A stretch of 63,453 bases of DNA, the filler included. It is 3 parts of 3 records of this genome, joined end to end, with 100 filler letters (N's around TTAATTAATTAA, not from the genome) between each part and the next. Parts side by side here need not be neighbours in the genome. Positions count along the whole stretch, not along the records: positions 31,033 to 58,095 come from SRR22947727_2446; 2 more parts are not named here. One strand, given 5' to 3'. A model generated the notes under the pieces. It searched no databases, was not told the DNA's origin, and worked only from the letters and a program-made list of their open reading frames with translations. Below, piece by piece: positions 30,897 to 60,481 of the stretch. Positions within the stretch are counted from its first letter, which is position 1. Each line of letters begins with the position of its first letter. Position numbers and translations under genes: made by a program.

Positions 30897-30906
30897 CTTA
30901 ACGCAC

Positions 30907-34685: not shown

Positions 34686-35686
34686 AAAAAATTGGATGGG
34701 GTATTTTAGGTGCAGCTAGGGTTAACGAACGCCTAATGCCTGCAATTGCTCAATCAGACTTTGGCGATTTGATAGCGATTGGCAGCAGACGACCTGGTGC
34801 TTCAAGAGAATGTCTTTTAAAACACCTACCAAAATATGAAGATAAAGTGTCCTGTTTTGACGGGTTAGATCAAGTAATCACTCATGAAAGCGTAGATGCA
34901 ATTTATATTCCTCTTGCAAATGAAGAACATACCGAGATCGCATTAAAGGCAATTAGAGAGAAAAAACACGTTTTAATTGAAAAGCCAATGGCAATAAAAT
35001 CCAAAGAGGTAAAAATTTTAATAGAGGAGGCAGCAAAGAATAATGTCAAAATTATGGAGGGATTTATGTATGCATTTCACCCTCAGTTTGACAGAATTAT
35101 GAATACTATTAAGTCTAATATTTTGGGAGATATTTCTTACGCTCATTCAATGTTCTCATTTCCAATTCAACCAGCAAGATTTTATCGTATTGATCGTTCG
35201 ATGGAGAATGGAGGTGGGGCACTATGGGATATTGGTCCGTATGCTATTCATACCATAAGACAATGCTTCAAAGAAAACCCCCAAAGAGTTAAGGCAATAG
35301 CGATAATTAATGAGCATGGAGCAGATATTGCAACAAGCGGTTTAATAGAATTTGGTAACTCAAAACGTGCAACATTTGATATAAGCTTTGAATGTACACG
35401 TAGATCAGAATTTGAAGCATTTGGTGCACTGGGAAGAGTTAAATGCCCGACAGTATGGCAACCAGATGATAAACAAGCAAAAATAATTATTAACACAGAA
35501 AGTTCTGGTTTAAATGAGGAAGTTGTGCCAGCAGCTAACCACTTTGTTTTAGAGATTAATCATTTTAATAAAGTTATTAGTTCGGATATAGTTCCCAAGT
35601 TATCAAGTGAGGATGCATTTTGGAACGCAAAGACACTAGAGTGTATTCAGCAAAGTATTAAGAAAGATAGTTGGATCAATCTTTGA
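34682..35686 (+). CDS. Gfo/Idh/MocA-family oxidoreductase
   Basis: WGILGAA, HVLIEKP, GGGALWDIGPY. Confidence 0.9.
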   Translation: MKKIGWGILGAARVNERLMPAIAQSDFGDLIAIGSRRPGASRECLLKHLPKYEDKVSCFDGLDQVITHESVDAIYIPLANEEHTEIALKAIREKKHVLIEKPMAIKSKEVKILIEEAAKNNVKIMEGFMYAFHPQFDRIMNTIKSNILGDISYAHSMFSFPIQPARFYRIDRSMENGGGALWDIGPYAIHTIRQCFKENPQRVKAIAIINEHGADIATSGLIEFGNSKRATFDISFECTRRSEFEAFGALGRVKCPTVWQPDDKQAKIIINTESSGLNEEVVPAANHFVLEINHFNKVISSDIVPKLSSEDAFWNAKTLECIQQSIKKDSWINL

Positions 35687-36315
35687 ATAAAGCAATTATT
35701 TTTGATTTTGATGGTACGTTGGTTGACTCTAAAATTACCATTTATCAGTGCTTCCAGAGCATAACTAATTATCTTGCACCCGAAAGAATTGATTATGCCA
35801 AAAATATTCTAATTGGCCCTCCGCTCCGTGATACTGCTTCTGAAATATTAGGCCCAAACTATCAAGGTCAATTAGATGAATTTGTAAAACTATTCATTGA
35901 GATGCATGATGAACACGCAATTAAAAATACCCAACCTTATCCTGGTGTAATTGAAACTTTAAAAGATTTAAGTTCGAAAGGCATATCAATGGCAGTTGCT
36001 ACTAATAAAAGATATGTGCCAACCATTAAACTAATTAATCATTTTGGATGGCATAAATATTTTACTTCTATCGAATGCAGCGATAGCCTCAACCAAATAA
36101 GAAATAAAGACGAAATGATTCAGGAAATTTTAAAAAATAATAACTATACTGAAGCATTTTTTGTTGGGGATACTGTTAATGACGGTTTATCTGCGAACCT
36201 TAATAAATTAACCTTTATTTTGGCACGCTATGGATATGGTCGAGATCAAGATTGGAAAAAAGTCAAAATTCATAATGAAATTCAACAATTCTCTAAAGTT
36301 TTAGAAATCATTTAA
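35671..36315 (+). CDS. HAD-superfamily hydrolase (phosphoglycolate phosphatase-like)
   Basis: FDFDGTLVDS, VATNK, VGDTVND. Confidence 0.9.
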   Translation: MDQSLNKAIIFDFDGTLVDSKITIYQCFQSITNYLAPERIDYAKNILIGPPLRDTASEILGPNYQGQLDEFVKLFIEMHDEHAIKNTQPYPGVIETLKDLSSKGISMAVATNKRYVPTIKLINHFGWHKYFTSIECSDSLNQIRNKDEMIQEILKNNNYTEAFFVGDTVNDGLSANLNKLTFILARYGYGRDQDWKKVKIHNEIQQFSKVLEII

Positions 36316-36319: not shown

Positions 36320-37495
36320 TTACAACTTATTAATGATAGTTATAATTTTTTTAAGATTAATTTTAGAAACTCCAAAAGAAAATCTTAAAAAATCTGGCTT
36401 ACCGAAAACACTTCCAGGAATTACAACTAATCCATATTCATTTAATAAATAATCAGCAAAATCTACATCACTTGAAAAGTTATACCTTAATATATATTTT
36501 TTAAAATCTACAAAGCAAAACATACCAGATTCAGGGATAATAAAATTAATACCGTAAACTTTATTTAGAGAATAAGAAATTTTTTTTACGTTCTCCTTTA
36601 ATTCACTACAAATTTGATCAGCAATTTCTGATTCGTTTTTAATTGCATGAATTGCAGCATATTGGGCAATAACTGGTATATTTGAAATAGATTGTGAGTT
36701 AATAGCTGTTAATATTTTTATTAATCCATGCGATGCGTAAATAAACCCAACTCTCCATCCAGTCATGCAACACGATTTAGATACACTATTTACAATAATA
36801 TTTCTTTTAATGGCATTAGGCCCAAGCTTTAAAAATGGAAATTTAATATTTTTAGCAGACCATGAGATATATTCGTAAACATTATCATGAATAATAAAAG
36901 CCTTAGAGTTTTTTAGGGATGACAAAACAAATGATAAGTATATTTCTTCTGGTAATATATTCCCACTTGGATTGCTTGGAGAATTAAATATAACGGCTTT
37001 AGTTTTTGATGAGAGCAACTTTTCAAATTTAAAAATAGAATTACTTTTTACATTAGAAATATCGAATAACTTAACTTTACCTCCAAAAGTTTTGATCATC
37101 TCTGGGTAGGATGGCCAATAAGGTGAAAAAATGATTACCTCATCATCAGGGTTTATTAAAGCTTGAAAAATGCAATACAAAGCATGTTTCGCACCTGCAG
37201 TAGAAATTATATTTTCATCTGTAGCACTTGATATATCGTAAAAGTTTTTAATTTTATACAAAATCTGTTCTCTGAGAGGGTCAATCCCACGAACATTTGT
37301 ATATCCGAATTCCTTTTTTTTAATACCATTTAAACCAGCCTGAATAATCTCCTCATTTGTTCTCTTATAGAATTCCCCAACACCTGCATCAATAATAGTT
37401 TTCCCATTTTTTTTTAAATACCTAGCTTTAGCAACAAGCGCCGAAATCGGCGAAATTGAAGTTTTAGATAATTGTTTATTAAATAAGTTTTTCAT
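36320..37495 (-). CDS. Class I/II PLP aminotransferase (AspC-like, divergent)
   Basis: GAKHAL, PYWPSY, NSPSNPSG, DNVY, SVSKSCCMTGWRVG (PLP lysine), LRFSF. Confidence 0.9.
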   Translation of the reverse strand: MKNLFNKQLSKTSISPISALVAKARYLKKNGKTIIDAGVGEFYKRTNEEIIQAGLNGIKKKEFGYTNVRGIDPLREQILYKIKNFYDISSATDENIISTAGAKHALYCIFQALINPDDEVIIFSPYWPSYPEMIKTFGGKVKLFDISNVKSNSIFKFEKLLSSKTKAVIFNSPSNPSGNILPEEIYLSFVLSSLKNSKAFIIHDNVYEYISWSAKNIKFPFLKLGPNAIKRNIIVNSVSKSCCMTGWRVGFIYASHGLIKILTAINSQSISNIPVIAQYAAIHAIKNESEIADQICSELKENVKKISYSLNKVYGINFIIPESGMFCFVDFKKYILRYNFSSDVDFADYLLNEYGLVVIPGSVFGKPDFLRFSFGVSKINLKKIITIINKL

Positions 37496-38379
37496 TAGAT
37501 TCTCGAGTAGAAATCATGAATTATAGAATCAATACTAAATAATTTTTTTTTGTAAAATTTCTTCTGTTGGTCGGTATTTGGGACATAAAAATCTTTATAG
37601 TCACTATTCTCTAATACTAAATTTGCAGAAGTTATCTCTGATATTTTATAACCAAGCTCTCTCATGGTTATTGGTTCAGGGGAGCCAATATTGATATATT
37701 TATTTGCTGCATCGATATTCGAAATAATACTAATTATGGCCATTCCAAGATCATATTCATGCATGTATGATCTTATCACTTTAGGATTTTTAACAACCAA
37801 AATGCCATTATTAATTGCACTGTTAAAAAGATCAATAATTGCAAATTCCTTTCTATTCATCATAAGACGCCCTGCAAAAGAAAATAATCTCAAAATAATA
37901 AAATTAATTTTATTATTTTGGCAAAATTCTCTTACTACATCCTCTTCTTTTAATTTTGCATATGCATATGTATTCTGCATTTCATCAGAGGATACGGTTA
38001 TATCTTTTTCCTTAAAAAAAGATTCTTTTTTTTTATAAACAGCTCCGCTACTGAGGTAGACAAATGTTTTAATATTTTTAGTTAAGCATACCTCTAATGA
38101 TTTTTTAAGATTAATTAAATTTAATTTATATCTAGTCTTAGAGTTCCTAGGCGCACTCATACTATGGATGTAAACATCATAAAAAGAATTAAACTTACAA
38201 TTAAAGAAATTTTGAAGATCTATAAGCTCTGGACTAATATTTAAATTATCCAATAATACTTTGCTATTTATTTTTGAAGATATTAAACCTAATTTTTTTA
38301 CAGAGTTTATATTTTTATCTAAATTACATCTAATTGAATTCGAAACAAAACCTGTAGCTCCAGATATTAATAGATTCAT
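37495..38379 (-). CDS. Extended SDR, NDP-sugar reductase/epimerase
   Basis: GATGFVS, SSGAVY, YAYAK, RSYMH. Confidence 0.85.
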   Translation of the reverse strand: MNLLISGATGFVSNSIRCNLDKNINSVKKLGLISSKINSKVLLDNLNISPELIDLQNFFNCKFNSFYDVYIHSMSAPRNSKTRYKLNLINLKKSLEVCLTKNIKTFVYLSSGAVYKKKESFFKEKDITVSSDEMQNTYAYAKLKEEDVVREFCQNNKINFIILRLFSFAGRLMMNRKEFAIIDLFNSAINNGILVVKNPKVIRSYMHEYDLGMAIISIISNIDAANKYINIGSPEPITMRELGYKISEITSANLVLENSDYKDFYVPNTDQQKKFYKKKLFSIDSIIHDFYSRI

Positions 38380-40205
38380 TAAATATCTTTTAAATAATTA
38401 ATGATGTCATCAACTTCTGCATCACTTAATGTAGGATTCATATTTATCAATGAACCACCTGCAATAGTTCCATCATCTCTCTTAGAAATTCCAACTTTAG
38501 GCTCAAAATTTTGATCATCTCTAACAATTACCTCGACAATTTTTCTACCCTCTTCAAAAATTTCTGATATTAAATTATCAGAACGATTATCAAGATCTAT
38601 ACATACATAATGAAAGCTATAGGCATTGGCTATTAGTTTTAAATCTGGAAAAGTTACACCATTATCTGGGCTAACCCCATGGAGCATAACTTCTTCACCG
38701 AAAATATTTTTTTGTGATTGTCTTATTGAATCATATCCGTCATTATTTATAACCACAAAAGAAATATCCAAATCATAACCTTTGACTGTTTGTAATTCTT
38801 GTATATTTAATTGAAAACTTCCATCACCGGTTAAACAAACAATTTTATTATTTCGGTCAGCAAGAGAAGATCCAATACTTGCAGGAATATCAAAACCCAT
38901 AGATGCACACCCAACATTTTGAAATAATAATTGGCCAAATTGAATATTTGCAGTTTGGAATGACCCTACAACAGAAATACCATTTCCAATCACTGTGTTA
39001 ATATGATTGGGTAACAATCGAAAGTAGTCAAATAAAAAATGATATGGGTTAAGTTTTTCGTGGCTAGTATAGTCGGATGGCTTGGGTCGGTATCTATTCC
39101 ATACATCTTTAGCTCTTAATACCCATCTTTCGTGTTTTAGAGGAGAAGTATAGTTAATTTTTTTTAGATTCGTAAGCATGGACTCACAAAAGCTTGCTGG
39201 ATTTGATAAAACTGGAAGATTGATTACTAAATTAGGCTTATAAAATTCATTAAAATCATTTTCAACCATAATCTTAAATGACTCAGGAGAAAATTTGTCT
39301 ATGTCAGGGCCTTTTTGTCTATTTGAGACAGTTGATCCAATAAATAAAATTAGATCAGACGTATAAACATTAAAATTACCAGACCTTTCTCCTCTAAGCC
39401 CAGGTCTTCCAACGAAAAAAGGGGAATTTGTAGAAATTAAGTCATGTGCATTCCACTCGGTTACTACTGGAATTTTTAAAAGCTGAATTAACTGCATTAA
39501 TTTAGATTCATATTCATATGATTTTAATTGAGCACCAAGGTAAAGTATTGGTCTAGATGATTTTGAAATTCTTTGAACTATTAAATCCAGTGTCATTTCA
39601 TTAACATTATTAGATCTAAGGTTTATATTGTTTGTCTCAATTAATTCAAAAGCGGCTGAGTCAAACTCGCATGGTACATACTTTCTTGCCTGAATATCCA
39701 TTGGAACATCAATCCACACTGGCCCTGGTCTTCCAGATTTTGCAATTTTTATACATTTCTCTATTTCATAAGACATATTAGTTGAATTGTCTACTCTTAA
39801 AACATATTTACATATTGGCTTTACAACTTGAGTGATCCCGTCAAACTCTTGATCGCCCAGTTGACGAAGAGGTATTGATGTTGAACCAACGCTTTGTGAT
39901 TGTTTAGGTTGACCTGAAATAATTATCACAGGTATGGAATCAACATATGCCCCATAAACACCATTTAAGGCATTCAAAGCTGCTGGTGCTGAAGTGACAT
40001 TTACGACAGCCATTTTTTTCGAAACCCTAAAATAACCTTCAGCCATCATCACTGCGGATTGTTCATTATGAAAATATACAGTTTCAATTTTTTTTGATTC
40101 AGCAAAAGCTTTATTAAGAAAAAGCGCGTGACCACCAACCATTGAAAAACAAATAGAAGCTTCTTTTTCTTCTAAAGTTTTAACTATAAATTCTGAATTA
40201 TTCAT
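38379..40205 (-). CDS. ThDP-dependent enzyme, YerE/acetolactate-synthase-like (probable NDP-sugar carboligase)
   Basis: HNEQSA, GRPGPVWIDVPMD, GDGSFQLN...NNDGY ThDP motif; located in a sugar operon with no ilvN or ilvC. Confidence 0.85.
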   Translation of the reverse strand: MNNSEFIVKTLEEKEASICFSMVGGHALFLNKAFAESKKIETVYFHNEQSAVMMAEGYFRVSKKMAVVNVTSAPAALNALNGVYGAYVDSIPVIIISGQPKQSQSVGSTSIPLRQLGDQEFDGITQVVKPICKYVLRVDNSTNMSYEIEKCIKIAKSGRPGPVWIDVPMDIQARKYVPCEFDSAAFELIETNNINLRSNNVNEMTLDLIVQRISKSSRPILYLGAQLKSYEYESKLMQLIQLLKIPVVTEWNAHDLISTNSPFFVGRPGLRGERSGNFNVYTSDLILFIGSTVSNRQKGPDIDKFSPESFKIMVENDFNEFYKPNLVINLPVLSNPASFCESMLTNLKKINYTSPLKHERWVLRAKDVWNRYRPKPSDYTSHEKLNPYHFLFDYFRLLPNHINTVIGNGISVVGSFQTANIQFGQLLFQNVGCASMGFDIPASIGSSLADRNNKIVCLTGDGSFQLNIQELQTVKGYDLDISFVVINNDGYDSIRQSQKNIFGEEVMLHGVSPDNGVTFPDLKLIANAYSFHYVCIDLDNRSDNLISEIFEEGRKIVEVIVRDDQNFEPKVGISKRDDGTIAGGSLINMNPTLSDAEVDDIINYLKDI

Positions 40206-40212
40206 TTCTTAT

Positions 40213-41418
40213 TTAAGCTAGAAGAATTTTGAGATCTTCATAAATGTATGAGAAAGGTTCGCACCCTACAGAGAAACGAATAAAATTATTGCTAAAGATC
40301 AGAGAGTGGTAATGCTTTTCATCAATCCCTCCTTTTTCTCTCTTACTCATGAAAAATGGAATTTCAATTAAGGAATCTACAGAACCAAAGCTTGGTGCCA
40401 TTTTTGTAGAACATAATTTTTCAATATTTCTCTCAAGATTTACTTCATGAATAACTTCAAATGAAATTACGCCACCATGAAAGGCATACTGTTCTCCCAT
40501 CGAGGCTTGATCATTATTTGAAAAAGAAAATGGATAAAAAATTCTTTTTATCTTTGGATGCTCCTTTAAGAAGGAAATAACATGATTAGTATTTTTCTCA
40601 ATTTGAGCAATTCTTAAATCATATGTTCTGAGACTTCTCAATAAAAGATAAGAATCAAATGACCCTAAAATACAACCGTTGGAAGATCTAAAATCCCATA
40701 CCTCCTTAACAAGATCTTTGTTTTTAGTCGATAGAATTCCAGCAAGAATATCATTGTGTCCTCCAATATATTTTGTACATGAAGAGACTATAATATCTGC
40801 ATGGTTTACCTCATCTTCATTAGTTATTAACCCTTGAAGCGTTATATCTATGATAATGAAGCTATCTGGAAATTCTCTTTTTAATTTTTTTACATCAGTA
40901 AGTCTTAAAAAGGGGTTACTAAAGTTTTCAATAAAAAATAATGTTTTCCCTTTTAATGAAGTAAGCATCGAAAATTTGTCATCAACAACATTTAAGTGGC
41001 GAATATTAAAACGTTTTGCTGCATCTGAAATAATCACTTCTGATTTACGATAAAACATTCCAAAAGTTACTATATTGTCAATCTTGTCATATAAAACATT
41101 CAATGCACAAGAAACGGCAGCCATTCCAGAATTAAACAAAAAGCAAGTACTCTTATCAAACATGTGTCCAAAATATTCCTCAGCTTGCCTTGCTAAATCA
41201 TTACCATCTCTAGCGTATCTAGTATTGTCTCTTTTGTTGTCATGATATTCATTAAGCTCATCTATAGTTTTAAAAGCATATGCTGAAGATAAATTGATGG
41301 ATGGATTTAGTGGATTTCCTATCGACTTTCCAAAATTATTGTCGCCAATAGTTGAGTTATTTGAAAGATGAAGATCATTCAAATATGAAGTGACGTATTT
41401 TTTAAATTTTTTATTCAT
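40213..41418 (-). CDS. Cys/Met-metabolism PLP enzyme, cystathionine gamma-synthase-like
   Basis: YARDGN, SGMAAV, YRKS, NPFLR, SCTKYIGGHNDILAG (PLP lysine), APSFG, IRFSVGCE. Confidence 0.88.
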   Translation of the reverse strand: MNKKFKKYVTSYLNDLHLSNNSTIGDNNFGKSIGNPLNPSINLSSAYAFKTIDELNEYHDNKRDNTRYARDGNDLARQAEEYFGHMFDKSTCFLFNSGMAAVSCALNVLYDKIDNIVTFGMFYRKSEVIISDAAKRFNIRHLNVVDDKFSMLTSLKGKTLFFIENFSNPFLRLTDVKKLKREFPDSFIIIDITLQGLITNEDEVNHADIIVSSCTKYIGGHNDILAGILSTKNKDLVKEVWDFRSSNGCILGSFDSYLLLRSLRTYDLRIAQIEKNTNHVISFLKEHPKIKRIFYPFSFSNNDQASMGEQYAFHGGVISFEVIHEVNLERNIEKLCSTKMAPSFGSVDSLIEIPFFMSKREKGGIDEKHYHSLIFSNNFIRFSVGCEPFSYIYEDLKILLA

Positions 41419-42379
41419 TATTTTTCAAATCCGTAAAATTCAACATTTCTTTGACTATGACTGGAGGTTTTCTCACTATGTGGGAAATAAGCAATATAAT
41501 ATACTCCCCAATTATTCCCAAAAAAATAAAAATCATACTAAAAAAGAATAAGTTTAAGAGTAAAAGAGGAGTTAATCCTGCTACATATGTATCCCAGTTG
41601 CTTAACTTTTGATATAAAAACCAAGATAAAAATATCATAGAAATACAACCAAGAAAAAACCCAAGTAAAATCATAAAGCGAAGAGGGAGCTTTGAAAATC
41701 GTACAATCCCAGTAATAGCTAATTCATAATTAGTGAAAAAATTTCCTTTTGATTCACCATACTTTCTATAAGGTTTGTCAAAAAAAACTTTGTCTATTTT
41801 GAATCCTAATTCAGGTATGATACCTCTAAAATATGGGAATGGATCATTCAATTTCTTTACTTCATCTATAACTTTTTTATCATATAGACCAAAACCCGTA
41901 AAGTTTTTTATCTGTTTGGTGTCAGAAATTTTTGAAATAAATGAATAAAATAGGGGCCGCACATATTTCATTAATCCAGGTTCTTCAGACTTATTTCTTA
42001 TAGCAATAACTACTTTTGAACCATTTTCCCAGTGTTTAATAAATTTAGGTATAAGTTCTGGGGGGTCTTCAAGATCAGAGGCCATTCTAATAATTACATC
42101 TCCAGAACAATGCATAAGAGAACTATAAGGAGATCTAACATGACCATAATTTGTTTGATTAAACAACACCTTAACATTTTTATTTTTTCTTGCTAAGTTG
42201 TATAAAACTTCTGGCGTTCTGTCGGTTGAATCATTATCAGATATAACTATTTCGTAATTATATTTTTTACTTGCTTTAAAGATTTCATCGATATGCTTAC
42301 ATACTTTATCAATATTTATTGATTCGTTATAGCAAGATGTTGCAATGCTAATTAGTTTTTTCTTATATGTTTTTTTCAT
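41411..42379 (-). CDS. GtrB/DPM-synthase-like GT2 polyprenyl-phosphate glycosyltransferase
   Basis: CYNE, DNDSTD, SDLEDPP, two C-terminal TM helices ending LGIIGEYI. Confidence 0.9.
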   Translation of the reverse strand: MKKTYKKKLISIATSCYNESINIDKVCKHIDEIFKASKKYNYEIVISDNDSTDRTPEVLYNLARKNKNVKVLFNQTNYGHVRSPYSSLMHCSGDVIIRMASDLEDPPELIPKFIKHWENGSKVVIAIRNKSEEPGLMKYVRPLFYSFISKISDTKQIKNFTGFGLYDKKVIDEVKKLNDPFPYFRGIIPELGFKIDKVFFDKPYRKYGESKGNFFTNYELAITGIVRFSKLPLRFMILLGFFLGCISMIFLSWFLYQKLSNWDTYVAGLTPLLLLNLFFFSMIFIFLGIIGEYIILLISHIVRKPPVIVKEMLNFTDLKNNE

Positions 42380-42758
42380 TAAAAGTAAATCTTGTGTGAG
42401 CTAAATAATTGTAACAAATTAATATGAAAAGAGATAATAATCTACTTAACCAAAATGTCCATAATAAGAAATCATAAAAAAACCAAACTAAACAAAAATT
42501 AATACAAAAAGATGATAAATAAACTAAATGAATTTTAAAATATTCATTTAGTAGAGGTTTTTTTGAATTAAAAACAAAATATCTATAATTAAAAAAGGAG
42601 AATGTCACCGTTATAAGATGCGATAAAGCTAAAATAAAAAAAAGAGATAATAAATTATTGAATAATTCGTATATGCAAATTGAAAAAAAATATCCAAAAA
42701 TAGTATTTACAAAACCAATTATTAGAAATTTTATTTTTCTTGATTTAATTCTTAACAC
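42363..42758 (-). CDS. GtrA-family flippase
   Basis: KFLIIGFVNT, YRYFVF, four hydrophobic segments, RFTF; probable GTG start at 42758 (track starts at 42788). Confidence 0.85.
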   Translation of the reverse strand: MLRIKSRKIKFLIIGFVNTIFGYFFSICIYELFNNLLSLFFILALSHLITVTFSFFNYRYFVFNSKKPLLNEYFKIHLVYLSSFCINFCLVWFFYDFLLWTFWLSRLLSLFILICYNYLAHTRFTFNEKNI

Positions 42759-42984
42759 AAAAAAACTTTTTGATTTTTTTAACAGCAAAAGTTAATATTT
42801 TCTCGTTAATACCTAAATAGATAGAAATCCAGATACTATTTTCCATCAAATTATCGGTATTTATCAAATCGTAATGAATTCTGAAATTTTATTTTTCATG
42901 AAAGACTGACTCACAAGATTGTGTCCAAAAAGAAGATGTTCTAGTTTTGAATTTATCAAAGTATTTTAAAAAGTCTAGCTTACT
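42745..42984 (-). pseudogene. Frameshifted relic of the 3' end of a second rfbH/ddhC
   Basis: Manual translation KLDFLKYFDKFKTR / HLLFGHNLVSQSFMKN / NFRIHYDLINTDNLMENSIWISIYLGINEKILTFAVKKIKKFF is colinear with the C-terminus of the adjacent RfbH. Confidence 0.85.
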
Positions 42985-42985
42985 T

Positions 42986-44311
42986 TTAATCAAAATTTAA
43001 ACCTAAAAACGTTTCAATCTTAGAGACCGTATAGTCAAGCATCTCATGAGTAAGGCCTGGATAAAGGCCAATCCAGAAGCTATGATTCATAATATAGTCA
43101 GTATTTCTTAAATCCCCCACAATTCTATATTTTTGATTGAGCATATAGGGTTGCTTTGTAAGATTTCCTGCAAATAATAATCGTGTACCAATTTTTGACT
43201 GATCCAAGTATTTTAAAAAGTCCACACGATTAAAACCACAATTCTCTTTTAACGTTAATAAAAATCCAAACCATGAAGGATCGCTGTTTTCTGTCGCTTC
43301 TGGTAGGTGAATAAATTCTTCACAGCTTTTTAATTTTTCTTTTAAATAGTTAAAATTATCTTTTCTGGCCTGGATAAAAAATTCTAATTTATCTAACTGG
43401 GCTAGGCCACATGCTGCTTGCATATCGGTTATTTTTAAATTAAACCCCATATGAGAATACGTATACTTATGATCGTATCCTTGGGGCAAATTTCCTAATT
43501 GCCAATTAAATCGTTTGTTACAAGTATTATCTTTCCCAGGTTGACAATAACAGTCCCTCCCCCAATCTCGAAAGGATTCAATGATTTTTTTTAACTGTAA
43601 GTCTTGTGTAAAGACTGCGCCGCCCTCACCCATAGTTATGTGATGCGCTGGATAAAAACTTAAAGTACCGATGTCTCCAAACGTACCTGTGAGTTGGCCA
43701 TTATATTTAGAACCTAATGCATCACAATTATCCTCAATGAGCCAAAGATTATACTTTTTACAAAAATCTAGAATAACCTTTAAATTAAAAGGATTGCCCA
43801 ATGAATGTGCTAGCATGACTGCTTTAACTTTTGGGCTATAGGCTTGCTCTAATTGATTTACATCGATATTGTGTGTTAAAAGATCTAAATCAACAAATAC
43901 CGGAGTGACGCCATACATCATCATTGGATTTACTGTAGTCGGAAAACCTCCTGCCACAGTAATCACCTCATCTCCTGGCTGAATTGCTCGATCCTCTAAT
44001 CGATCTGAAGTGAGGGCAGAAAAGGCCAGCAAATTCGCAGAAGAGCCAGAATTAGTTGTCACAAGAGACTTCACTCCAAGAAAATTAGCCAATTTTTTTT
44101 CAAAGTCGTCATTAAAACGGCCAGTGGTTAACCAACCATCTAAAGATGCATCTACCATGGACATGAGTTCATTTTCATCTAGGACCTTTCCTGATGGAGG
44201 TATGGTTGTTTCTCCTGGTAAAAAATTATTGGGTTGGTATTTTATTTGCCCGAATTCTTTAACTTTATTAAGAATTTGTTGTTTTAAATGTATCAGTCTT
44301 TCTTGTGACAT
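42986..44311 (-). CDS. rfbH: CDP-4-keto-6-deoxyglucose 3-dehydratase (E1, DdhC)
   Basis: NSGSSANL, SFYPAHHITMGEGG (His in place of Lys), GRDCYC..C Fe-S motif, YDHKY. Confidence 0.95.
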   Translation of the reverse strand: MSQERLIHLKQQILNKVKEFGQIKYQPNNFLPGETTIPPSGKVLDENELMSMVDASLDGWLTTGRFNDDFEKKLANFLGVKSLVTTNSGSSANLLAFSALTSDRLEDRAIQPGDEVITVAGGFPTTVNPMMMYGVTPVFVDLDLLTHNIDVNQLEQAYSPKVKAVMLAHSLGNPFNLKVILDFCKKYNLWLIEDNCDALGSKYNGQLTGTFGDIGTLSFYPAHHITMGEGGAVFTQDLQLKKIIESFRDWGRDCYCQPGKDNTCNKRFNWQLGNLPQGYDHKYTYSHMGFNLKITDMQAACGLAQLDKLEFFIQARKDNFNYLKEKLKSCEEFIHLPEATENSDPSWFGFLLTLKENCGFNRVDFLKYLDQSKIGTRLLFAGNLTKQPYMLNQKYRIVGDLRNTDYIMNHSFWIGLYPGLTHEMLDYTVSKIETFLGLNFD

Positions 44312-45385
44312 TTATCTTCCTATTAATTTAAAATATTTTTGCAACTGGGATTGACTATATTGATAGATATTTTTATTAGCATAATAATTTTCGTACCAAT
44401 CTAATGTAAGCTTAATAGTATCTTTGAAACTCAAAAGGCTTTTCCATTGCAATTGTTTTCTAACTTTGGACACATCAAGTTTTAATAATGATGCTTCATG
44501 CTTTATTTCATCTCTATTATAATTGACATCTACCGATTTATTTATATTTGCTTGCATCTCCTGGATCACTGATTCTACATTCATTACTCCTAAATCACTG
44601 GGTCCAAAATTCCAAGCTTCGCTATATTTCTTAGGATTTGTATACAACTTTTCACATAATAACAAATAACCAACTAAAGGCTCGATCACATGCTGCCAGG
44701 GCCTAATAGCTTTAGGATTTCTAATCTGTAAAGATTTGTCACTTTGTTGAGCGCGAATAAAATCTGGAATTAAACGATCTTGAGACCAATCGCCACCACC
44801 GATCACATTACCTGCTCTAGCTGAAGCAAGACCAATATTTGATTTTTCAAAAAAAGATTGCCGAAATGAAGCTGTAACTAACTCAGCACAAGCTTTACTG
44901 TTGCTATATGGATCATACCCTCCTAGGCGGTCAGACTCTTGATAGCCATGGTCCCGTTCATTATTTTCATAACATTTATCAGAAGTTACATTTAAGACAA
45001 CTCTTAATGATTTTAAATTTTTACTAATATCAAGCAAATTCACCAGACCTAATACATTAGTTTCGTATGTTTCAACAGGATCATCATAAGATAAGCGAAC
45101 TAAAGGCTGTGCAGCTAAATGTATAATAACTTCAGGATTGACATAATTAATTTTTTCTTGAAAATTTATGTAATCTCGAATGTCGCCAATATATGAAGTA
45201 ATGTTTAAATTTTTTTTTACAGCATCAAAGAAACTTGGGTTAGATATTGGAGCTAATGAATAACCAGAAACATTAGCTCCTAATGAATCAAGTATAATTG
45301 ATAACCATGTTCCCTTAAAACCAGTATGGCCTGTTAAAAAAACTTTTTTATTTCTCCAAAAGCTATGGTCTACCATTTTTTCCAT
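44312..45385 (-). CDS. rfbG: CDP-glucose 4,6-dehydratase (DdhB)
   Basis: TGHTGFKG, HLAAQPLV, TSDKCY, YSNSK, RAGNVIGGGDW, RPWQHV. Confidence 0.96.
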   Translation of the reverse strand: MEKMVDHSFWRNKKVFLTGHTGFKGTWLSIILDSLGANVSGYSLAPISNPSFFDAVKKNLNITSYIGDIRDYINFQEKINYVNPEVIIHLAAQPLVRLSYDDPVETYETNVLGLVNLLDISKNLKSLRVVLNVTSDKCYENNERDHGYQESDRLGGYDPYSNSKACAELVTASFRQSFFEKSNIGLASARAGNVIGGGDWSQDRLIPDFIRAQQSDKSLQIRNPKAIRPWQHVIEPLVGYLLLCEKLYTNPKKYSEAWNFGPSDLGVMNVESVIQEMQANINKSVDVNYNRDEIKHEASLLKLDVSKVRKQLQWKSLLSFKDTIKLTLDWYENYYANKNIYQYSQSQLQKYFKLIGR

Positions 45386-46134
45386 GGAGCCTTATCAGTA
45401 ATCCATAAATTATCAAGCATATTTTTTTCACGAAGAGTGTCCATGGGCTGCCAAAAGTCAAAATGTTTAAAAACATTTAATTGATTATTTTTAGCTAAAT
45501 GTTCTAAGGGCTGTCTTTCCCATATCGTTGAATCATCAGAAATTAAGTCGAGAACTTCAGGTTCTAACACAAAAAAACCTGCATTAATTATTGAATTATC
45601 ACCTTTTGGCTTTTCTTGGAAACCAAGAACATTATCATCTTGAATTTTTAGTGCTCCAAATCGTCCTGGTGGTTCGGCACCAGTTATAGTAGCTAATTTT
45701 TTTTTCTTTTTATGAAAATCTACTAAATCCGATATGTTTATATCTGACAAGCCATCCCCGTAAGTCATACAAAATGTACCATCTAAATATTTTTTAACTC
45801 TTCTTAGCCTTCCTCCAGTCATTGTATTTTCACCGGTATCAACTAAGGTGATTTTCCATGGCTCAGCAAACTTATCATGAATTTCTATTTCGTTTGAATT
45901 TATATCGATTGTAATATCTGATAAATGATAGAAGTAATTTAAAAAATATTCTTTTATTACATAGCCTTTATAACCACAGCAAATGATAAACTCATTTAGC
46001 CCATAAGCTGAATAAATTTTCATTAAATGCCATAAAAGAGGTTTACCGCCAATTTCTATCATCGGCTTAGGTTTAGATACACTCTCCTCACTTATGCGAG
46101 TTCCTAAACCTCCTGCCAAAAGAACTACTTTCAC
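45370..46134 (-). CDS. rfbF: Glucose-1-phosphate cytidylyltransferase (DdhA)
   Basis: LAGGLGTR, PKPMIEIG, TMTGGRL, TYGDG, FWQPMDTLRE. Confidence 0.96.
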   Translation of the reverse strand: MKVVLLAGGLGTRISEESVSKPKPMIEIGGKPLLWHLMKIYSAYGLNEFIICCGYKGYVIKEYFLNYFYHLSDITIDINSNEIEIHDKFAEPWKITLVDTGENTMTGGRLRRVKKYLDGTFCMTYGDGLSDINISDLVDFHKKKKKLATITGAEPPGRFGALKIQDDNVLGFQEKPKGDNSIINAGFFVLEPEVLDLISDDSTIWERQPLEHLAKNNQLNVFKHFDFWQPMDTLREKNMLDNLWITDKAPWKKW

Positions 46135-46212: not shown

Positions 46213-48090
46213 TTATATTCTTTTATGTAAGATGTCTGCAATCTCGCTCTGAGGTTTAAAGCTAGGTACAAGTTGAATTAATAACTTACGGATTTTTTCA
46301 TTATTTCCACTTTCAACTTCCGCTTTAAGGTTTTCTAAAATTGGCTTTAACTTTTCCCAAGGCAACATATCCTCTTTAGCACGCATGATAAGTGGATTTT
46401 CAGTATCAATAGAATTATCTCCAATAAGAAGCTCCTCATAGAGTTTTTCGCCAGGTCTTAAGCCTGTATATTTGATTTCAATATCGCCATCAGGGTTAGA
46501 TTTGTCTTTTACCTCTAAACCACTTAATTGAATCATTTTTTTTGCCAAAAAATTTATTTCTACAGGCTTACCCATATCAAGAACAAAAACATCGCCACCC
46601 TCTCCCATTGCTCCTGCTTGGATTACTAATTCCACCGCCTCAGATATCATCATAAAGTAACGAGTGATACTTTTTTCTGTAACTGTGACAGGACCACCAT
46701 CTTTAATCTGTTTTTTAAATAAAGGGATTACTGATCCACTTGAGTTAAGAACATTTCCAAATCTTACCATCGTGAATCTTGTATCTTTTTGTTTCATTGA
46801 AAGTGCCTGCAAAATCAACTCAGCACATCTCTTCGTAGCTCCCATAGTATTGGTAGGTCGAACTGCTTTATCTGTAGAAATTAATACAAAGATTTCTACG
46901 CCGCTATCAATAGCTGCTTGTGCACAGCTCAACGTTCCAAAAACGTTATTGTTTACTCCTTCGGTATTATTAAATTCAACCATAGGAACGTGTTTGTATG
47001 CTGCCGCATGGTAAACAGTATCCACCTTAAAATGTTTAAATATTTTAATAAGCCGGACTTCATTATTAACACTGCCAAGCACTGGATATATATCTATTTT
47101 CAATGAGTTAATGCTGGAAAGCTCTTTTTCAATAGAAAAGAGTGCTAATTCATTCATCTCATACAAGACTAACCTTTTTGGACTCAAATTTATAATTTGT
47201 CTGCAAATCTCTGATCCAATTGAACCTCCTGCGCCAGTAACTAAAACTACCTTACCTGTGACAGCCTTACGTAATAATTGTTGATTAGGTATCACAGCGT
47301 CACGACCAAGCAAGTCTTCTATGCTCACTTCCTGCAAATCATCTGCATTAACCCTACCCCTAGCTAAATCTGTAACACTTGGAAGCATCCGAACATGTAC
47401 GGCAAAGTTTTCTAATGAAGCAATAATTTCAAATCGTTTAGCGCGAGAAGATGATGGAATGGCAAGTAATACATCTTCAATCTTAAGTTTATTTATCACA
47501 TCGCCAATATCCATTGCGGAAAAAACAGTTAATCCTAAAATATTAACACCTTGCAACCCTTTTGCTTGATCTACAAACCCAACAACTTTGTATTCCTGAG
47601 AATAATTTAAGGCACCAGCAAGCTGTACGCCGGCACTCCCCGCCCCATATATTAATGCTCTTTTTCTTTTTTTAGTGTTTTTCTTCCTTTCAGATAATAC
47701 CCATTTAGCAAAAAATCGTGAAGCAACTATCGTTAATATCGTTAAAATCCAATTTATCAAAACAACTGAACGAGGCCAGCCTTGTAATCCTAAAAAAAGA
47801 AAACCCCACATTAAAGAATATAAAGACACAGCTTGGAAGGTAATCCATAAGGCGTAAAAACCAACATAGCGAGTAACTGATCGATATAAGCCATAGTAAT
47901 TGAAAATAATAATACCTATAAATGGGGCGGAAAGTAATAACCAAAAAATTAAACCACTATAGGGAACAAACCATTCTCCTAATCTTATTGAAAAAGACAA
48001 CCACAGCACTAATAAAATAGAGCAAAAATCAACAGACAAGATGATAAGTTTTTTATATGAACGTGGGAGACTAATGAGCTTATTTAGCAA
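46213..48090 (-). CDS. WbpM/CapD/PglF-type membrane-bound UDP-GlcNAc 4,6-dehydratase
   Basis: Four N-terminal TM helices; GAGGSIGSE, HAAAYKHVP, STDKAVRP, MGATK, RFGNV, RPGEKLYEE. Confidence 0.93.
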   Translation of the reverse strand: MLNKLISLPRSYKKLIILSVDFCSILLVLWLSFSIRLGEWFVPYSGLIFWLLLSAPFIGIIIFNYYGLYRSVTRYVGFYALWITFQAVSLYSLMWGFLFLGLQGWPRSVVLINWILTILTIVASRFFAKWVLSERKKNTKKRKRALIYGAGSAGVQLAGALNYSQEYKVVGFVDQAKGLQGVNILGLTVFSAMDIGDVINKLKIEDVLLAIPSSSRAKRFEIIASLENFAVHVRMLPSVTDLARGRVNADDLQEVSIEDLLGRDAVIPNQQLLRKAVTGKVVLVTGAGGSIGSEICRQIINLSPKRLVLYEMNELALFSIEKELSSINSLKIDIYPVLGSVNNEVRLIKIFKHFKVDTVYHAAAYKHVPMVEFNNTEGVNNNVFGTLSCAQAAIDSGVEIFVLISTDKAVRPTNTMGATKRCAELILQALSMKQKDTRFTMVRFGNVLNSSGSVIPLFKKQIKDGGPVTVTEKSITRYFMMISEAVELVIQAGAMGEGGDVFVLDMGKPVEINFLAKKMIQLSGLEVKDKSNPDGDIEIKYTGLRPGEKLYEELLIGDNSIDTENPLIMRAKEDMLPWEKLKPILENLKAEVESGNNEKIRKLLIQLVPSFKPQSEIADILHKRI

Positions 48091-48321: not shown

Positions 48322-48882
48322 TTAATGACTCACACCACTTCTACTTATTACCCTTAAGAAAGTCATCCACAATATTTTCATTTCAAACAAAAACGATTGG
48401 CGGTTTAAATATTCTACGTCTAATTCAACTTTATCAGGAATTGATAATGCATCCCTCCCGTTAATCTGCGCCCACCCTGTAATGCCAGGTAATAATTTAT
48501 CCACACCTTTTTTTGTTCGTAGATCTATTAAATCATCTTGATTAAATAATGCAGGACGCGGACCAACAAAACTCATATCACCCTTCAAAACGGAAAATAA
48601 TTGTGGAAGCTCATCTAAGCTTGAACGTCGCAAAAAATCTCCAATAGGTGATAAATGCTCTTCCGGATTGTTCAGAAGATGCGTTGCTACATTGGGAGTG
48701 TCTACAAGCATTGATCTAAACTTTGGCATTTCAAATATTTTATTATTTTTTCCAACTCTATCAGTCCAATATAGGGACGGGCCTTTAGATGTGCAACGAA
48801 CAGCAATAGAAATTAACAGCATTGGGGCCATTAATAGCAACAAAAGTATAATACTTGTAAATATATCAAAAAATCTTTTCAT
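48322..48882 (-). CDS. Initiating phosphoglycosyl transferase (small PglC/WcaJ-C-terminal type)
   Basis: MKRFFD, KFRSM, SLDELPQL, GDMSFVGPRP, PGITGWAQ. Confidence 0.93.
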   Translation of the reverse strand: MKRFFDIFTSIILLLLLMAPMLLISIAVRCTSKGPSLYWTDRVGKNNKIFEMPKFRSMLVDTPNVATHLLNNPEEHLSPIGDFLRRSSLDELPQLFSVLKGDMSFVGPRPALFNQDDLIDLRTKKGVDKLLPGITGWAQINGRDALSIPDKVELDVEYLNRQSFLFEMKILWMTFLRVISRSGVSH

Positions 48883-50100
48883 TTAGCCTCTTTCTGCAAC
48901 AAGCTTTAACAACTTGTCGATCGTTTTTTCTTTATTGAAAATTGTAGCTAATATTCGATCGTTTTCACCAGTAAATTTTTTTCTTTTTTTCTTACTTATT
49001 TCTATACACCTCTGAAACAGCGTAGATATAGCATCAACTTTTGATGGATTGGCACATAAACCAAGATTATTATCTTGAATGATATTAGCTGTATCGCCAT
49101 TAATAATTGCAAGTATAGGTTTCTTAGCTGCAATATAAGTTTGTAGTTTAGCAGGCACAGTTACTGAAAAAATTGGCTTATCTATAAGAGAGATAATCAA
49201 AAAATCACTGGCTTTGTAATAACTAGCCATATTTAACCTTGGTTTTTTTCCATAAAAAACAATGTTTGGATTATTATTTGCAATCATCTTAAGATTATCA
49301 AGATTAGATCCATCTCCGATAATATTAAGTTGAGACTTTTCTTGATAATCGTGATTAAGAAAGCAAAAAGCTTTTATAATATTTTCTAGATTCTGCACTT
49401 TACCGATGTTCCCAGCAAATGTGAAGTGAACCTTACAATCGTTACTGAGAACAGCAGGCTCTAGACTCATGTCTAGATCATCTGCCCATTGAGGTAAATA
49501 ATCAAAAGTTTGATCACTTTTAACATAAGGTTTTAACTTTAATGCAAACCCTTTGCTTGAAATGGCGAATTTATCAACATTTTGATATATGAACTTAACA
49601 AATTTATCCAATAAATAAGATAAAGCTTTAGTTTTTCTAAAGCCATAAGCATAAATACTATCAGGCCAAATATCTAAAACCCAAAAAGTCACAGGTTTTT
49701 TGTAAAGTTTTCGCATTAGTACCGCCGGTAACATACTTGTCAAGGCGCTCATATTAAAACCTAATACATAATCATATTTTTTACCAATAAAAATAGACAC
49801 AATGCTAGCAAGAATCATGAAATTCACATACTTTAAAACCTTCTTAAATATGCTATCTTTATATCCCAATGTTGCATGCACTCGATAAATATTTATTCCT
49901 TGCCACTCACTTTTTGAATAAAGTTTGTTTTTAAAGCCTGGATAGATCTTTCCAGATGGATAACTTGGCGCTAAAGTCAAAATATCAACATCAAAACCCT
50001 TATCTTTCCAAGTCAAAGCAACGTCATTAATCTTAAAATCTTCAGGATAAAAACACTCTGTAACAATGAGTATTTTTTTTGACATTAATATTTCTTCCAA
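48883..50100 (-). CDS. GT4 glycosyltransferase, WbuB/WbjE-like (probable L-FucNAc/FucNAm transferase)
   Basis: FYPE, WVLDIWPDS, FAGNIGKVQ, PAKLQTY; directly after fnlC. Confidence 0.85.
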   Translation of the reverse strand: MEEILMSKKILIVTECFYPEDFKINDVALTWKDKGFDVDILTLAPSYPSGKIYPGFKNKLYSKSEWQGINIYRVHATLGYKDSIFKKVLKYVNFMILASIVSIFIGKKYDYVLGFNMSALTSMLPAVLMRKLYKKPVTFWVLDIWPDSIYAYGFRKTKALSYLLDKFVKFIYQNVDKFAISSKGFALKLKPYVKSDQTFDYLPQWADDLDMSLEPAVLSNDCKVHFTFAGNIGKVQNLENIIKAFCFLNHDYQEKSQLNIIGDGSNLDNLKMIANNNPNIVFYGKKPRLNMASYYKASDFLIISLIDKPIFSVTVPAKLQTYIAAKKPILAIINGDTANIIQDNNLGLCANPSKVDAISTLFQRCIEISKKKRKKFTGENDRILATIFNKEKTIDKLLKLVAERG

Positions 50101-51215
50101 ACCTTTCTATTCACATAGTCAGTATAACTATGAACGATACGGACAATCTTATCAGATACATTTGGCATAGAATAATCAGAAACTTGCCTCATGAGCCTCT
50201 GCTTTCCTCTTGGTTGGTTATCAATAATAGCGAGTGACTGCATAATTCTTTTTTTCTCTAGCCCCGTCATCGTAACAACAGCCTCTTCCATGCCTTCTGG
50301 TCGTTCATGTGCTTCACGCAGGTTAAGTGCAGGGAAATTCATAATAGAGGCCTCTTCATTGATAGTACCGCTATCTGATAACACTGCCTTAGCGCATATT
50401 TGAAGCTTATTATAATCCATGAACCCTAAAGGTTTTAACAATTGAATCATTGAATTTAATTCTACTTTCATTTCATCGAGACGCTTTTGCGTTCTTGGAT
50501 GCGTAGAAACAATAATTGGCAATTGATAAGAGTCTGCAATCGTGTTTAGAGTATCCATTAAATTTAAAAAGTGCTTATCAGAATCGACATTCTCTTCACG
50601 ATGAGCACTTACAACAAAAAACTCATATTCTTTAATCCCCAAATGCGTCAACACATCGGAACTGTCAATACCATCACGATAAGTATTAAGTACTTCAAAC
50701 ATTGGGCTACCTGTTTTGATAACCATATCCGCCGGTAAACCTTCACTTAAAAGATAGTCTCGCGCAATACTACTGTAAGTTAAATTAATATCAGCCATGT
50801 GGTCAACTAAACGACGATTAATTTCCTCTGGGACACGCTGATCAAAGCAGCGATTACCTGCCTCCATATGAAATGTTGGTATTTTTCTGCGCTTGCCAGC
50901 TAATAGGGCCATACAGCTATTTGTATCACCCAAAACAAGCATAGCTTCCGGTTGAATCTCATCTAAAACTTTATCGGTTTCAATGATAACGTTTCCAATA
51001 GTTTCAGCCACGGTTGCGCCAGCAGCACCTAAAAAATAATCTGGCTTTCTAATTCCTAGATCATCGAAGAAAATTTCGTTTAATTCATAATCATAGTTTT
51101 GCTCTGTATGAATCAGAATATGTTCACAATACTTATCAAGCTTCTTAATGACGCATGCAAGTCGTATGATTTCTGGACGTGTTCCAACTACTGTTACAAT
51201 TTTTAATTTTTTCAT
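50085..51215 (-). CDS. fnlC: UDP-L-FucNAc pathway 2-epimerase (WbjD/Cap5G)
   Basis: VGTRPEIIRL, LGDTNS, HMEAGNRCFD, PEEINR, SDSGT. Confidence 0.92.
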   Translation of the reverse strand: MKKLKIVTVVGTRPEIIRLACVIKKLDKYCEHILIHTEQNYDYELNEIFFDDLGIRKPDYFLGAAGATVAETIGNVIIETDKVLDEIQPEAMLVLGDTNSCMALLAGKRRKIPTFHMEAGNRCFDQRVPEEINRRLVDHMADINLTYSSIARDYLLSEGLPADMVIKTGSPMFEVLNTYRDGIDSSDVLTHLGIKEYEFFVVSAHREENVDSDKHFLNLMDTLNTIADSYQLPIIVSTHPRTQKRLDEMKVELNSMIQLLKPLGFMDYNKLQICAKAVLSDSGTINEEASIMNFPALNLREAHERPEGMEEAVVTMTGLEKKRIMQSLAIIDNQPRGKQRLMRQVSDYSMPNVSDKIVRIVHSYTDYVNRKVWKKY

Positions 51216-51218
51216 AGA

Positions 51219-59743: not shown

Positions 59744-59792
59744 TTTTTTGCATTTTCTTACGTTAGCTTATAAATTAATTTGATTCTATTTT

Positions 59793-60476: not shown

Positions 60477-60481
60477 TTTTT

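Follow-up and report, generated by a model that had tools for sequence, protein, structure and literature searches.

Why should a gene run for a dideoxysugar linked to cytidine diphosphate (CDP) contain, directly side by side, a carboligase dependent on thiamine diphosphate (ThDP) and a pyridoxal 5'-phosphate (PLP) enzyme of the Cys/Met family? This question is raised by nine genes at 36320-46134 (minus strand) of the stretch of DNA analyzed here, called the window, which measures 63,453 nucleotides including filler and consists of three parts from three records of one genome joined end to end (positions 31,033 to 58,095 come from SRR22947727_2446). A preliminary description had proposed that the run directs the synthesis of a C4-branched 3,6-dideoxy sugar whose side chain derives from an amino acid. 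According to the present analysis, what is new is that one clade of YerE-like ThDP enzymes is obligately paired with a Cys/Met-family PLP enzyme. That the genes encode a pathway for a ThDP-branched sugar is very probable; that they serve, more specifically, as the part of an O-antigen or capsule locus that makes a nucleotide sugar, in which a 3,6-dideoxyhexose would be branched at C4 by a unit supplied through PLP chemistry, is our leading reading, although a tentative one.

The gene run and its YerE-like carboligase

The nine open reading frames (ORFs) are co-oriented, and the ORF listing matches the coordinates first described exactly. Families were assigned by scoring Pfam and NCBIfam profiles against curated cut-offs. 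From the 5' end, the run starts with rfbF/ddhA for a glucose-1-phosphate cytidylyltransferase (45370..46134; TIGR02623, 437 bits against a cut-off of 300; PF00483 as well), rfbG/ddhB for a CDP-glucose 4,6-dehydratase (44312..45385; TIGR02622, 474 bits against 278) and rfbH/ddhC for a CDP-6-deoxy-4-keto-hexose 3-dehydrase, or E1 (42986..44311; NF011936, 749 bits against 423). These are followed by genes for a GtrA-like small membrane protein, putatively a polyprenyl-phosphate-sugar flippase (42363..42788; PF04138, 47 bits against 26), a GtrB-like glycosyltransferase of family GT2 with polyprenyl phosphate as its putative substrate (41411..42379; PF00535, 82 bits against 23), the Cys/Met-family PLP enzyme, proposed to supply a 2-oxo acid donor (40213..41418; PF01053, 221 bits against 27), and the YerE-like ThDP carboligase (38379..40205; PF02776, PF00205 and PF02775). 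The last two encode an extended short-chain dehydrogenase/reductase (SDR), proposed to be a YerF-like reductase of the branch ketone (37495..38379; PF01370, 65 bits against 21), and a class I aminotransferase resembling aspartate aminotransferases (AspAT) of type Ib, probably a lineage-specific accessory (36320..37495; PF00155, 194 bits against 20). rfbF and rfbG overlap by 16 bp, rfbG and rfbH abut, and at least 197 bp lie between rfbH and gtrA. From gtrA on, the six genes down to the aminotransferase gene are packed with overlaps of 17, 8, 1 and 1 bp and a single 7-bp gap. The co-oriented run with its tight last six genes, as initially outlined, was thus borne out by ORF coordinates and profile matches. 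Its core order, either gtrB, Cys/Met PLP, ThDP and SDR, or rfbFGH, Cys/Met PLP, ThDP, SDR and aminotransferase, is present in nine other metagenome loci, and given this recurrence the combination exceeds chance.

The ThDP enzyme had been likened to YerE, known from the YerE/YerF pathway of yersiniose A in Yersinia pseudotuberculosis (Chen, Guo and Liu, 1998, as described in PMC9306805), and set apart from the housekeeping acetolactate synthase IlvB. Its best solved relative in a search of the PDB was JanthE (8rph; E 1.3e-75, 258 bits, aligned over residues 4-593), which PMC12188165 describes as a YerE-like enzyme carrying a 2-ketobutyrate-ThDP adduct, whereas the best acetolactate synthase entry among solved structures reached 166 bits. 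The NCBIfam equivalog for acetohydroxyacid synthase (AHAS), TIGR00118, scored 263 bits and stayed under its cut-off of 538. A GDGS-x25-NN cofactor motif is found from residue 460 onward, and the catalytic Glu48 is invariant in the alignment of ThDP enzymes. In a tree of 100 rows, from which L016, L047 and L049 had been dropped by an ORF-length filter, YerE-like enzymes were split from IlvB-like rows with a support of 100. By every feature compared, with JanthE, acetolactate synthase entries and IlvB-like rows as references, the enzyme belongs to the YerE-like group; the separation from IlvB was upheld by scores and tree alike.

The same holds for the proposed context of CDP-3,6-dideoxyhexose synthesis, as rfbF, rfbG and rfbH are located 2.8-5.9 kb upstream of the ThDP gene on the same strand. 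A scan of genome contigs with the ThDP protein gave, among the matches listed, 80 loci (L001-L080) with relatives of 34-40% identity, in which neighbours were sought by tblastn (E <= 1e-10, coverage > 0.6, within 10 kb). RfbF was detected near these YerE-like genes in 47, RfbG in 43, an RfbH-like protein in 44 and a GtrB-like protein in 53 of the 80 loci, some of the RfbH-like matches being just 23-32% identical and possibly other DegT enzymes; the PLP enzyme, the SDR and the aminotransferase of the window were each found in none of them. Among 401 sampled genomes of the same class, three YerE-like matches with 33-36% identity were present, none of which falls into the clade with PLP neighbours.

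The Cys/Met enzyme and the branch donor

Scanning metagenome contigs with the ThDP protein yielded 23 loci. In all nine in which the ThDP enzyme shows an identity of 43% or more to that of the window (L094-L102), a homologue of the Cys/Met PLP gene ends a few bases before the ThDP start, and identities run in parallel: PLP enzymes of 72-73% accompany ThDP enzymes of 80-82%, one of 45% accompanies one of 54%, and those of 39-44% accompany 43-44%. No Cys/Met PLP gene was found in the six metagenome loci with ThDP enzymes of 34-37% identity, nor in any of the 86 distant YerE-like loci which these six form together with the 80 genome loci listed, even at E 1e-3, and none in seven metagenome loci of acetolactate-synthase-like type (ThDP 26-29% identical). 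The ten PLP-adjacent ThDP enzymes constitute a single clade with a support of 100 in the Shimodaira-Hasegawa-like approximate likelihood ratio test (SH-aLRT) and a stem length of 0.8, where it has to be considered that the sister row of this clade, L015, is a long branch. In the protein database, about 110 cluster representatives share 35% identity or more with the PLP enzyme of the window; most seem to stem from environmental metagenomes, some of them marine, and a few from named Gammaproteobacteria. At least seven of them agree with a similarly ranked ThDP hit in the size of the longest contig (18449, 4192, 14238, 13314, 34527, 7331 and 8451), which points indirectly to the same pairing. The Cys/Met PLP gene is tightly and exclusively tied to this ThDP clade, which fits the supply of a donor other than pyruvate. 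The preliminary description had treated both PLP genes as parts of one module, and this was confirmed for one of them only: with nine of nine close loci against none of 86 distant ones the Cys/Met enzyme is core to the clade, whereas the aminotransferase, present in three of seven evaluable loci, is an accessory.

What the Cys/Met enzyme would contribute is indicated by the neighbours of other YerE-like genes. ErwE, MMAR_2332 and MyGE take longer 2-oxo acids, and BphI-like or citrate-lyase-like aldolases encoded nearby were proposed as makers of those donors (PMC9306805); the idea of neighbour-made longer donors for YerE-like enzymes is therefore already published, for aldolases. In a census of 96 loci (the window, L001-L080 and L094-L108; all census figures refer to the matches listed), ORFs up to 6 kb away from the ThDP gene were clustered and large clusters were named with Pfam. 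An HMGL-like aldolase was located near the ThDP gene in 32 loci, an HpcH/HpaI aldolase in 14, a NeuB-like protein in ten and a Cys/Met PLP enzyme in nine, to which L101 with a PLP gene cut by the contig end has to be added, while 30 loci had none of these four candidate donor-supply families. In no locus did two of the four occur together, and most such genes are situated directly beside the ThDP gene. Because it is mutually exclusive with aldolase and NeuB-like neighbours, the PLP enzyme probably occupies the donor-supply slot and would provide a 2-oxo acid. The NeuB-like genes (L003, L012, L014, L034, L039, L041, L043, L046, L052 and L070; cluster median about 50 bp from the ThDP gene) and a 3-dehydroquinate-synthase-like gene, found in 20 of the 96 loci, are possible further types of donor supply. 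Other neighbours comprised GtrB-like proteins in 50, RfbH and RfbF in 39 each and classical SDRs in 16 loci.

The Cys/Met enzyme itself looks catalytically competent, since the PLP lysine (...TKYIGGHND), the Tyr-Arg motif and the C-terminal carboxylate-binding Arg motif are kept in all nine aligned clade members. None of the 25 NCBIfam models listed reached its cut-off (best NF006347, 192 against 477), so that the curated score of a specific cystathionine gamma-synthase (CGS), cystathionine gamma-lyase (CGL), methionine gamma-lyase, cystathionine beta-lyase or sulfhydrylase was not attained. Among solved structures, the closest to it are cystathionine gamma-lyase/homocysteine desulfhydrases (7d7o, 1.5e-48, and Staphylococcus-type entries) and tobacco CGS (1i41, 1.8e-41). 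All nine clade members display YRK[ST], after the PLP-stacking Tyr, as well as APSFG and GHND, and the same motifs occur in tobacco CGS 1i41. At these signature sites, the twelve housekeeping homologues taken from relatives have YGG instead (12 of 12), and mostly AESLGG (10 of 12). The 120 best database homologues showed Y[RK][KR][ST] in 109 cases, PSFG in 107 and YGG in none, so that the signature marks a wider subfamily and not just this clade.

Plant CGS uses O-phosphohomoserine, and Cys/Met-family enzymes release 2-oxobutyrate and ammonia by gamma-elimination, which synthases also perform without a thiol. As ThrB was present in all five genomes of the same genus, O-phosphohomoserine should be available. 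A narrow model for threonine dehydratase passed in just two of 14 control genomes, and MetX matches stayed under the cut-off. The matches to MetX-like homoserine acyltransferase in G002:C1:39457-40374 and in three other genomes of the genus are embedded in open frames 1131-1166 residues long, so that the genus may possess a fusion protein. According to PMC12247030, 2-oxobutyrate is accepted by JanthE and YerE. Because pyruvate needs no supplier, the family otherwise commonly releases 2-oxobutyrate, and both carboligases accept it, a propanoyl branch is favoured, and 2-oxobutyrate may quite possibly be the branch donor.

The ThDP partner shows changes of its own. Thirteen residues are fixed or nearly so in the PLP-coupled clade and differ in the 83 other YerE-like enzymes among the matches listed; they include His26 (Gly elsewhere) and Asn47 (His elsewhere), beside catalytic Glu48, as well as Ser411-Val412 and Gln429/Val431 near the cofactor motif, as mapped on JanthE. 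Many of the thirteen positions (stretches 23-50 and 411-431) are near the catalytic Glu and the cofactor-binding loop. The substitutions are consistent with a changed substrate without identifying which.

A functionalised donor would be expected if the Cys/Met enzyme catalysed a gamma-replacement on activated homoserine and its product were transaminated to a 4-substituted 2-oxobutanoate, from which the ThDP enzyme would build a branch with a heteroatom, e.g., sulfur. This route had been envisaged in the preliminary description. The PLP enzyme does have the motifs YRK[ST], APSFG and GHND in common with tobacco CGS, which is a true gamma-synthase, the operon of the window as well as L098, L099 and L115 include a gene for a class I aminotransferase, and His26 and other polar changes specific to the ThDP clade could serve such a donor; moreover, 4-methylthio-2-oxobutanoate is used by MyGE (77% conversion) and ErwE (10%) (PMC9306805, Table 1). 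However, no aminotransferase gene follows the SDR gene in L095 and L096, nor the ThDP gene in L100 and L101, which are without the SDR too, and four close aminotransferase representatives face about 110 of the PLP enzyme, so that most of the clade would need a housekeeping transaminase. Furthermore, the loci share no conserved gene that would provide a special nucleophile or activate homoserine. With the aminotransferase so scarce, gamma-replacement followed by dedicated transamination was not borne out as the general route of the clade; it is unlikely to explain the window, and gamma-elimination to 2-oxobutyrate is the more economical reading.

Branch finishing, acceptor and delivery

After transfer of the acyl unit, the SDR and the aminotransferase are the candidates for finishing the branch. 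The SDR has a YAYAK motif from residue 138, no solved relative was found for it at E <= 1e-5 in the PDB search, and its gene is placed directly 3' of the ThDP gene in seven loci (L094-L099 and L115). The aminotransferase has the PLP-lysine motif SKSCCMTGWR; its best PDB matches are aspartate aminotransferases, and its best NCBIfam match, an archaeal AspAT model, gave 252 bits against a cut-off of 550. Its gene follows the SDR gene in L098, L099 and L115 and is absent in L095, L096, L100 and L101; three more loci end too early to judge, and L098 and L099 are not independent because they are near-identical. Only four cluster representatives are at least 45% identical to it, each of which equals a ThDP or PLP hit in contig size, and relatives beyond those four do not exceed 39% identity and are mostly aspartate aminotransferases of Bacillaceae. 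The aminotransferase is an accessory of some lineages only.

In those lineages it might aminate the side-chain ketone to an amino-branched sugar, with the role of the SDR shifted. Presence of the aminotransferase varies among sister lineages, and where it is absent or uncheckable the SDR is more diverged, with 57-60% identity as against 80-82% for the ThDP enzyme, 79-83% for GtrB and 72-73% for the PLP enzyme; acetyl branches of secondary metabolites, too, are modified by reductases, transaminases or oxygenases (PMC9306805). Nevertheless, this reading appears improbable: the enzyme is AspAT-Ib-like with its next relatives, below 40% identity, being AspATs of Bacillaceae, and such enzymes normally need an alpha-carboxylate. 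The amination of sugar ketones is usually the task of DegT-type enzymes, and there would be redundancy if an SDR and an aminotransferase both acted on one ketone.

In the leading reading, by contrast, the ketone would be reduced. Judged from their families, RfbF, RfbG and RfbH would generate CDP-4-keto-3,6-dideoxyglucose, with the E3 reductase encoded elsewhere or replaced. The Cys/Met enzyme would convert a common amino acid to a 2-oxo acid donor, most likely by gamma-elimination of O-phosphohomoserine, another activated homoserine, homocysteine or methionine to 2-oxobutyrate. The YerE-like enzyme would decarboxylate this donor and transfer the acyl group onto the C4 ketone, yielding a 4-C-propanoyl tertiary alcohol, and the SDR would reduce the side-chain ketone in a YerF-like manner to a 4-C-(1-hydroxypropyl) sugar, a 'homo-yersiniose' with a C3 branch. 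GtrB would then load the sugar on undecaprenyl phosphate, GtrA would flip it, and a glycosyltransferase of the GT-C type encoded outside the window would attach it, as is suggested by gene associations; the class I aminotransferase would be a lineage-specific tailoring or supply enzyme.

As regards the acceptor, the equivalogs of DdhA, DdhB and DdhC are all above cut-off in the window. RfbH displays the pattern Cys196-x57-Cys254-x-Cys256-x7-Cys264 and His-His at the PLP-lysine site of DegT enzymes, and this combination of cysteines with His in place of lysine we take to be the signature of an E1 dehydrase. As regards delivery, a hydropathy scan revealed hydrophobic segments over the whole length of GtrA and at the C-terminus (residues 228-303) of the GtrB-like protein, whose best NCBIfam matches, PgfS and the ArnC type, are both under cut-off. 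In the census, GtrA neighbours formed two clusters (18 and 7 of 96 loci), and GT-C neighbours were of PMT_2 type in eight and of GT87 type in four loci. Because GtrB-like, GtrA and some GT-C proteins are encoded beside so many YerE-like genes, many branched sugars may reach the polymer via a polyprenyl-phosphate carrier. Such a route is not mentioned in the YerE-family literature consulted.

A number of observations weigh against this pathway as a whole. DdhD/E3 was not found in the window (tblastn with a DdhD-like query from L098, E 1e-2), and DdhD-like matches occurred in just four of 116 loci, L098 among them. In L095 (45-8246) and L096 (3-7725), whose ThDP enzymes are 81-82% identical, gtrB and the PLP, ThDP and SDR genes follow glmU-glmS on the same strand with few-base gaps; no rfb genes were present there in the 3 kb upstream, and an aminotransferase gene is missing. 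L100 holds only genes for a NAD kinase, GtrB, GtrA, the PLP and the ThDP enzyme, with no rfbFGH nearby, and L101 contains RmlA/RmlB/DegT/WbqC-like genes instead of rfbFGH. As these four modules are located away from rfbFGH, the acceptor may differ between lineages. Among the genes of the window locus no cognate GT-C was recognised by Pfam and the Atlas leads, and the aminotransferase is a candidate for transaminating a gamma-replacement product, for aminating the side-chain ketone or for supplying a precursor. The donor is affected, too: the motifs shared with plant CGS belong to a synthase, and gamma-lyases and gamma-synthases are not separable by sequence; 2-oxobutyrate is an ordinary metabolite for which a dedicated supplier is not strictly needed; and His26, a residue of the active site of the ThDP enzyme, might speak for a functionalised donor instead of a plain ethyl side chain. 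In the literature searched, no paper linking cystathionine-type enzymes to branched sugars was found; Krug et al. (2024), as cited in PMC12247030, may already describe this class. L101 also encodes a protein of 639 amino acids with many hydrophobic segments and no Pfam match, which could be a GT-C.

If the acceptor differed in the window as well, the ThDP enzyme would act on another 4-keto sugar, e.g., the uridine diphosphate (UDP) derivative UDP-4-keto-6-deoxy-GlcNAc, and rfbFGH with the SDR would produce a plain 3,6-dideoxyhexose. A PglF/WbpM-like dehydratase gene (46213-48090, minus strand; Pfam and Atlas leads) does adjoin rfbF, the module stands with glmU and glmS but without rfbFGH in L095 and L096 and with RmlA/RmlB-like genes in L101, and the SDR resembles abequose and paratose synthases in size. 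Yet the SDR gene is directly 3' of the ThDP gene also where rfbFGH is absent, RfbF and RfbH are among the commonest neighbours of YerE-like genes (39 of the 96 loci each), and in L098 and L099 ddhD-rfbFGH is directly joined to the PLP, ThDP, SDR and aminotransferase genes, L098 presenting all of them in a row with an ordinary GT2 in place of GtrAB. A different acceptor in the window is consequently rather improbable. That the PLP, ThDP and aminotransferase genes are ordinary met- or ilv-like metabolism genes placed in the locus by chance, as annotations of homologues as 'acetolactate synthase' and 'cystathionine gamma-synthase' in the source data might imply, is hardly credible, since no equivalog cut-off was reached, the housekeeping homologues of 61 relatives do not exceed 31% identity, the ThDP enzyme of the nearest genome is just 25% identical, synteny with gtrB and rfb genes is conserved and the tree separates the enzyme from IlvB-like rows.

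The nine genes represent the 3' part of a single minus-strand polysaccharide locus extending from 58024 to 36320. Besides the dehydratase, its upstream part comprises, by Pfam and the Atlas leads and all on the minus strand, genes for a small initiating transferase (Bac_transf, 48322-48882), a GT1 glycosyltransferase (48883-50100), FnlC/B/A-like proteins (50085-53373), HisF/HisH-like proteins (53363-54753), an amidotransferase-like protein (54750-55895), an unnamed polysaccharide-biosynthesis protein (55888-57189) and an O-antigen-polymerase-like membrane protein (57128-58024). The FnlA/B/C, HisH/HisF-like and amidotransferase-like genes (50085-55895) presumably indicate an acetimidoylated N-acetyl-L-fucosamine (L-FucNAc). 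They recur at 55-71% identity beside the PLP-ThDP module in L098 (14501-17805) and L099, and a repeat unit of L-FucNAc type may thus be a recurrent companion of the branched sugar.

Downstream, a gene for a hydrolase of the haloacid dehalogenase (HAD) family (35671-36315, plus strand) is convergent to the aminotransferase gene, from which 4 bp separate it. HAD genes are found within 6 kb of the ThDP gene, often adjoining it, in 31 of the 96 YerE-like loci listed, mostly of the aldolase type. The gene at 35671-36315 was considered as a member of the system and rejected, because it is convergent on the opposite strand and its product is only 22-33% identical to HAD neighbours elsewhere.

In a comparison covering window positions 8001-63193, the nearest genome (G001, 64% complete) was 99-100% identical over 8001-30899 and 58196-63193. 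No high-identity match was found in this incomplete genome for 30900-58195 (27.3 kb), where only a few short or 67-69% matches elsewhere in it were obtained, and its sole ThDP match is 25% identical to the ThDP enzyme of the window. The left break of the segment coincides with the 3' end of a transfer-messenger RNA gene (30503-30897); the segment has a lower G+C content and also contains ispG, rlmN and ndk. A strain-variable island, recombination of the block or a difference in assembly could account for it.

Comparison with known systems and significance

Yersiniose A synthesis resembles the present system in its ddhABC genes, its three-domain AHAS-like ThDP carboligase and the adjacent reductase. 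It differs in that YerE uses pyruvate and needs no gene for donor supply, whereas the operon of the window adds the Cys/Met PLP gene, the aminotransferase gene and gtrA/gtrB and no ddhD was found in the window. Closer in this respect are the pathways of erwiniose (ErwE/ErwF/ErwI/ErwJ), caryophyllose (MMAR_2331-2333) and gastriose (MyGE/MygI/MygF), where a longer 2-oxo acid made by a neighbour enters and a reductase follows (PMC9306805); HMGL-like and HpcH aldolases together stood beside 46 of the 96 YerE-like genes among the matches listed. However, the suppliers in those pathways are aldolases that make 4-hydroxy-2-oxo acids (PMC9306805), while in the window the slot is taken by a PLP enzyme, which predicts a non-hydroxylated or heteroatom-bearing branch. 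As read from its genes, the system would work like the yersiniose, erwiniose and caryophyllose scheme, with PLP-dependent donor supply as the novelty.

Among characterised enzymes, JanthE of Janthinobacterium sp. HH01 (8rph, 8rpi, 8rpj) is not only the best solved relative of the carboligase but also accepts 2-oxobutanoate, according to PMC12188165 and PMC12247030. It differs from the window enzyme in a CDG cofactor motif where the latter has the canonical GDG, and in Gly where the window clade has His26. The Cys/Met enzyme shares its fold family and the PLP-lysine, Tyr-Arg and Arg motifs with plant CGS (tobacco 1i41, 1qgn) and bacterial CGL/homocysteine desulfhydrase (7d7o, 7md1), but phmmer matches amount to just 146-169 bits, and its role would be in a sugar operon and not in methionine metabolism. 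GtrA, GtrB and GtrC are known from O-antigen glucosylation, and lipid-carrier routes also exist in the ArnC/ArnT type. With the former the window shares a small GtrA membrane protein and a GT2 with C-terminal membrane helices; the donor, however, would be a CDP-linked branched dideoxyhexose instead of UDP-glucose or UDP-4-deoxy-4-formamido-L-arabinose (UDP-Ara4FN).

Taken further, the loci might belong to an undescribed and widespread class of acyl-branched sugars, in which a branch from the aspartate/methionine pathway would be formed by a PLP gamma-lyase or gamma-synthase together with a ThDP carboligase, and the CDP-sugar would be passed to undecaprenyl phosphate by GtrB/GtrA/GT-C. Its members would bear a C3 or a sulfur- or nitrogen-containing side chain on a 3,6-dideoxyhexose, and a CDP-sugar donor is not known for the GtrB/GtrA/GT-C route. 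This wider proposal is to be regarded as doubtful at present.

Branched sugars of surface polysaccharides are hard to detect chemically, and the published scheme predicts them from genes (PMC9306805). To this scheme a PLP lyase or synthase would add a fourth, chemically different type of donor supply, and it would predict a sugar absent from the descriptions consulted. For biocatalysis the two enzymes would be a natural pair leading from an amino acid via a 2-oxo acid to a tertiary alcohol, reactions for which YerE-like enzymes are being engineered. Finally, the mutually exclusive aldolase, NeuB-like and PLP neighbours, together with the association with GtrB and GT-C proteins, would provide rules, directly open to testing, on the construction and attachment of these sugars.

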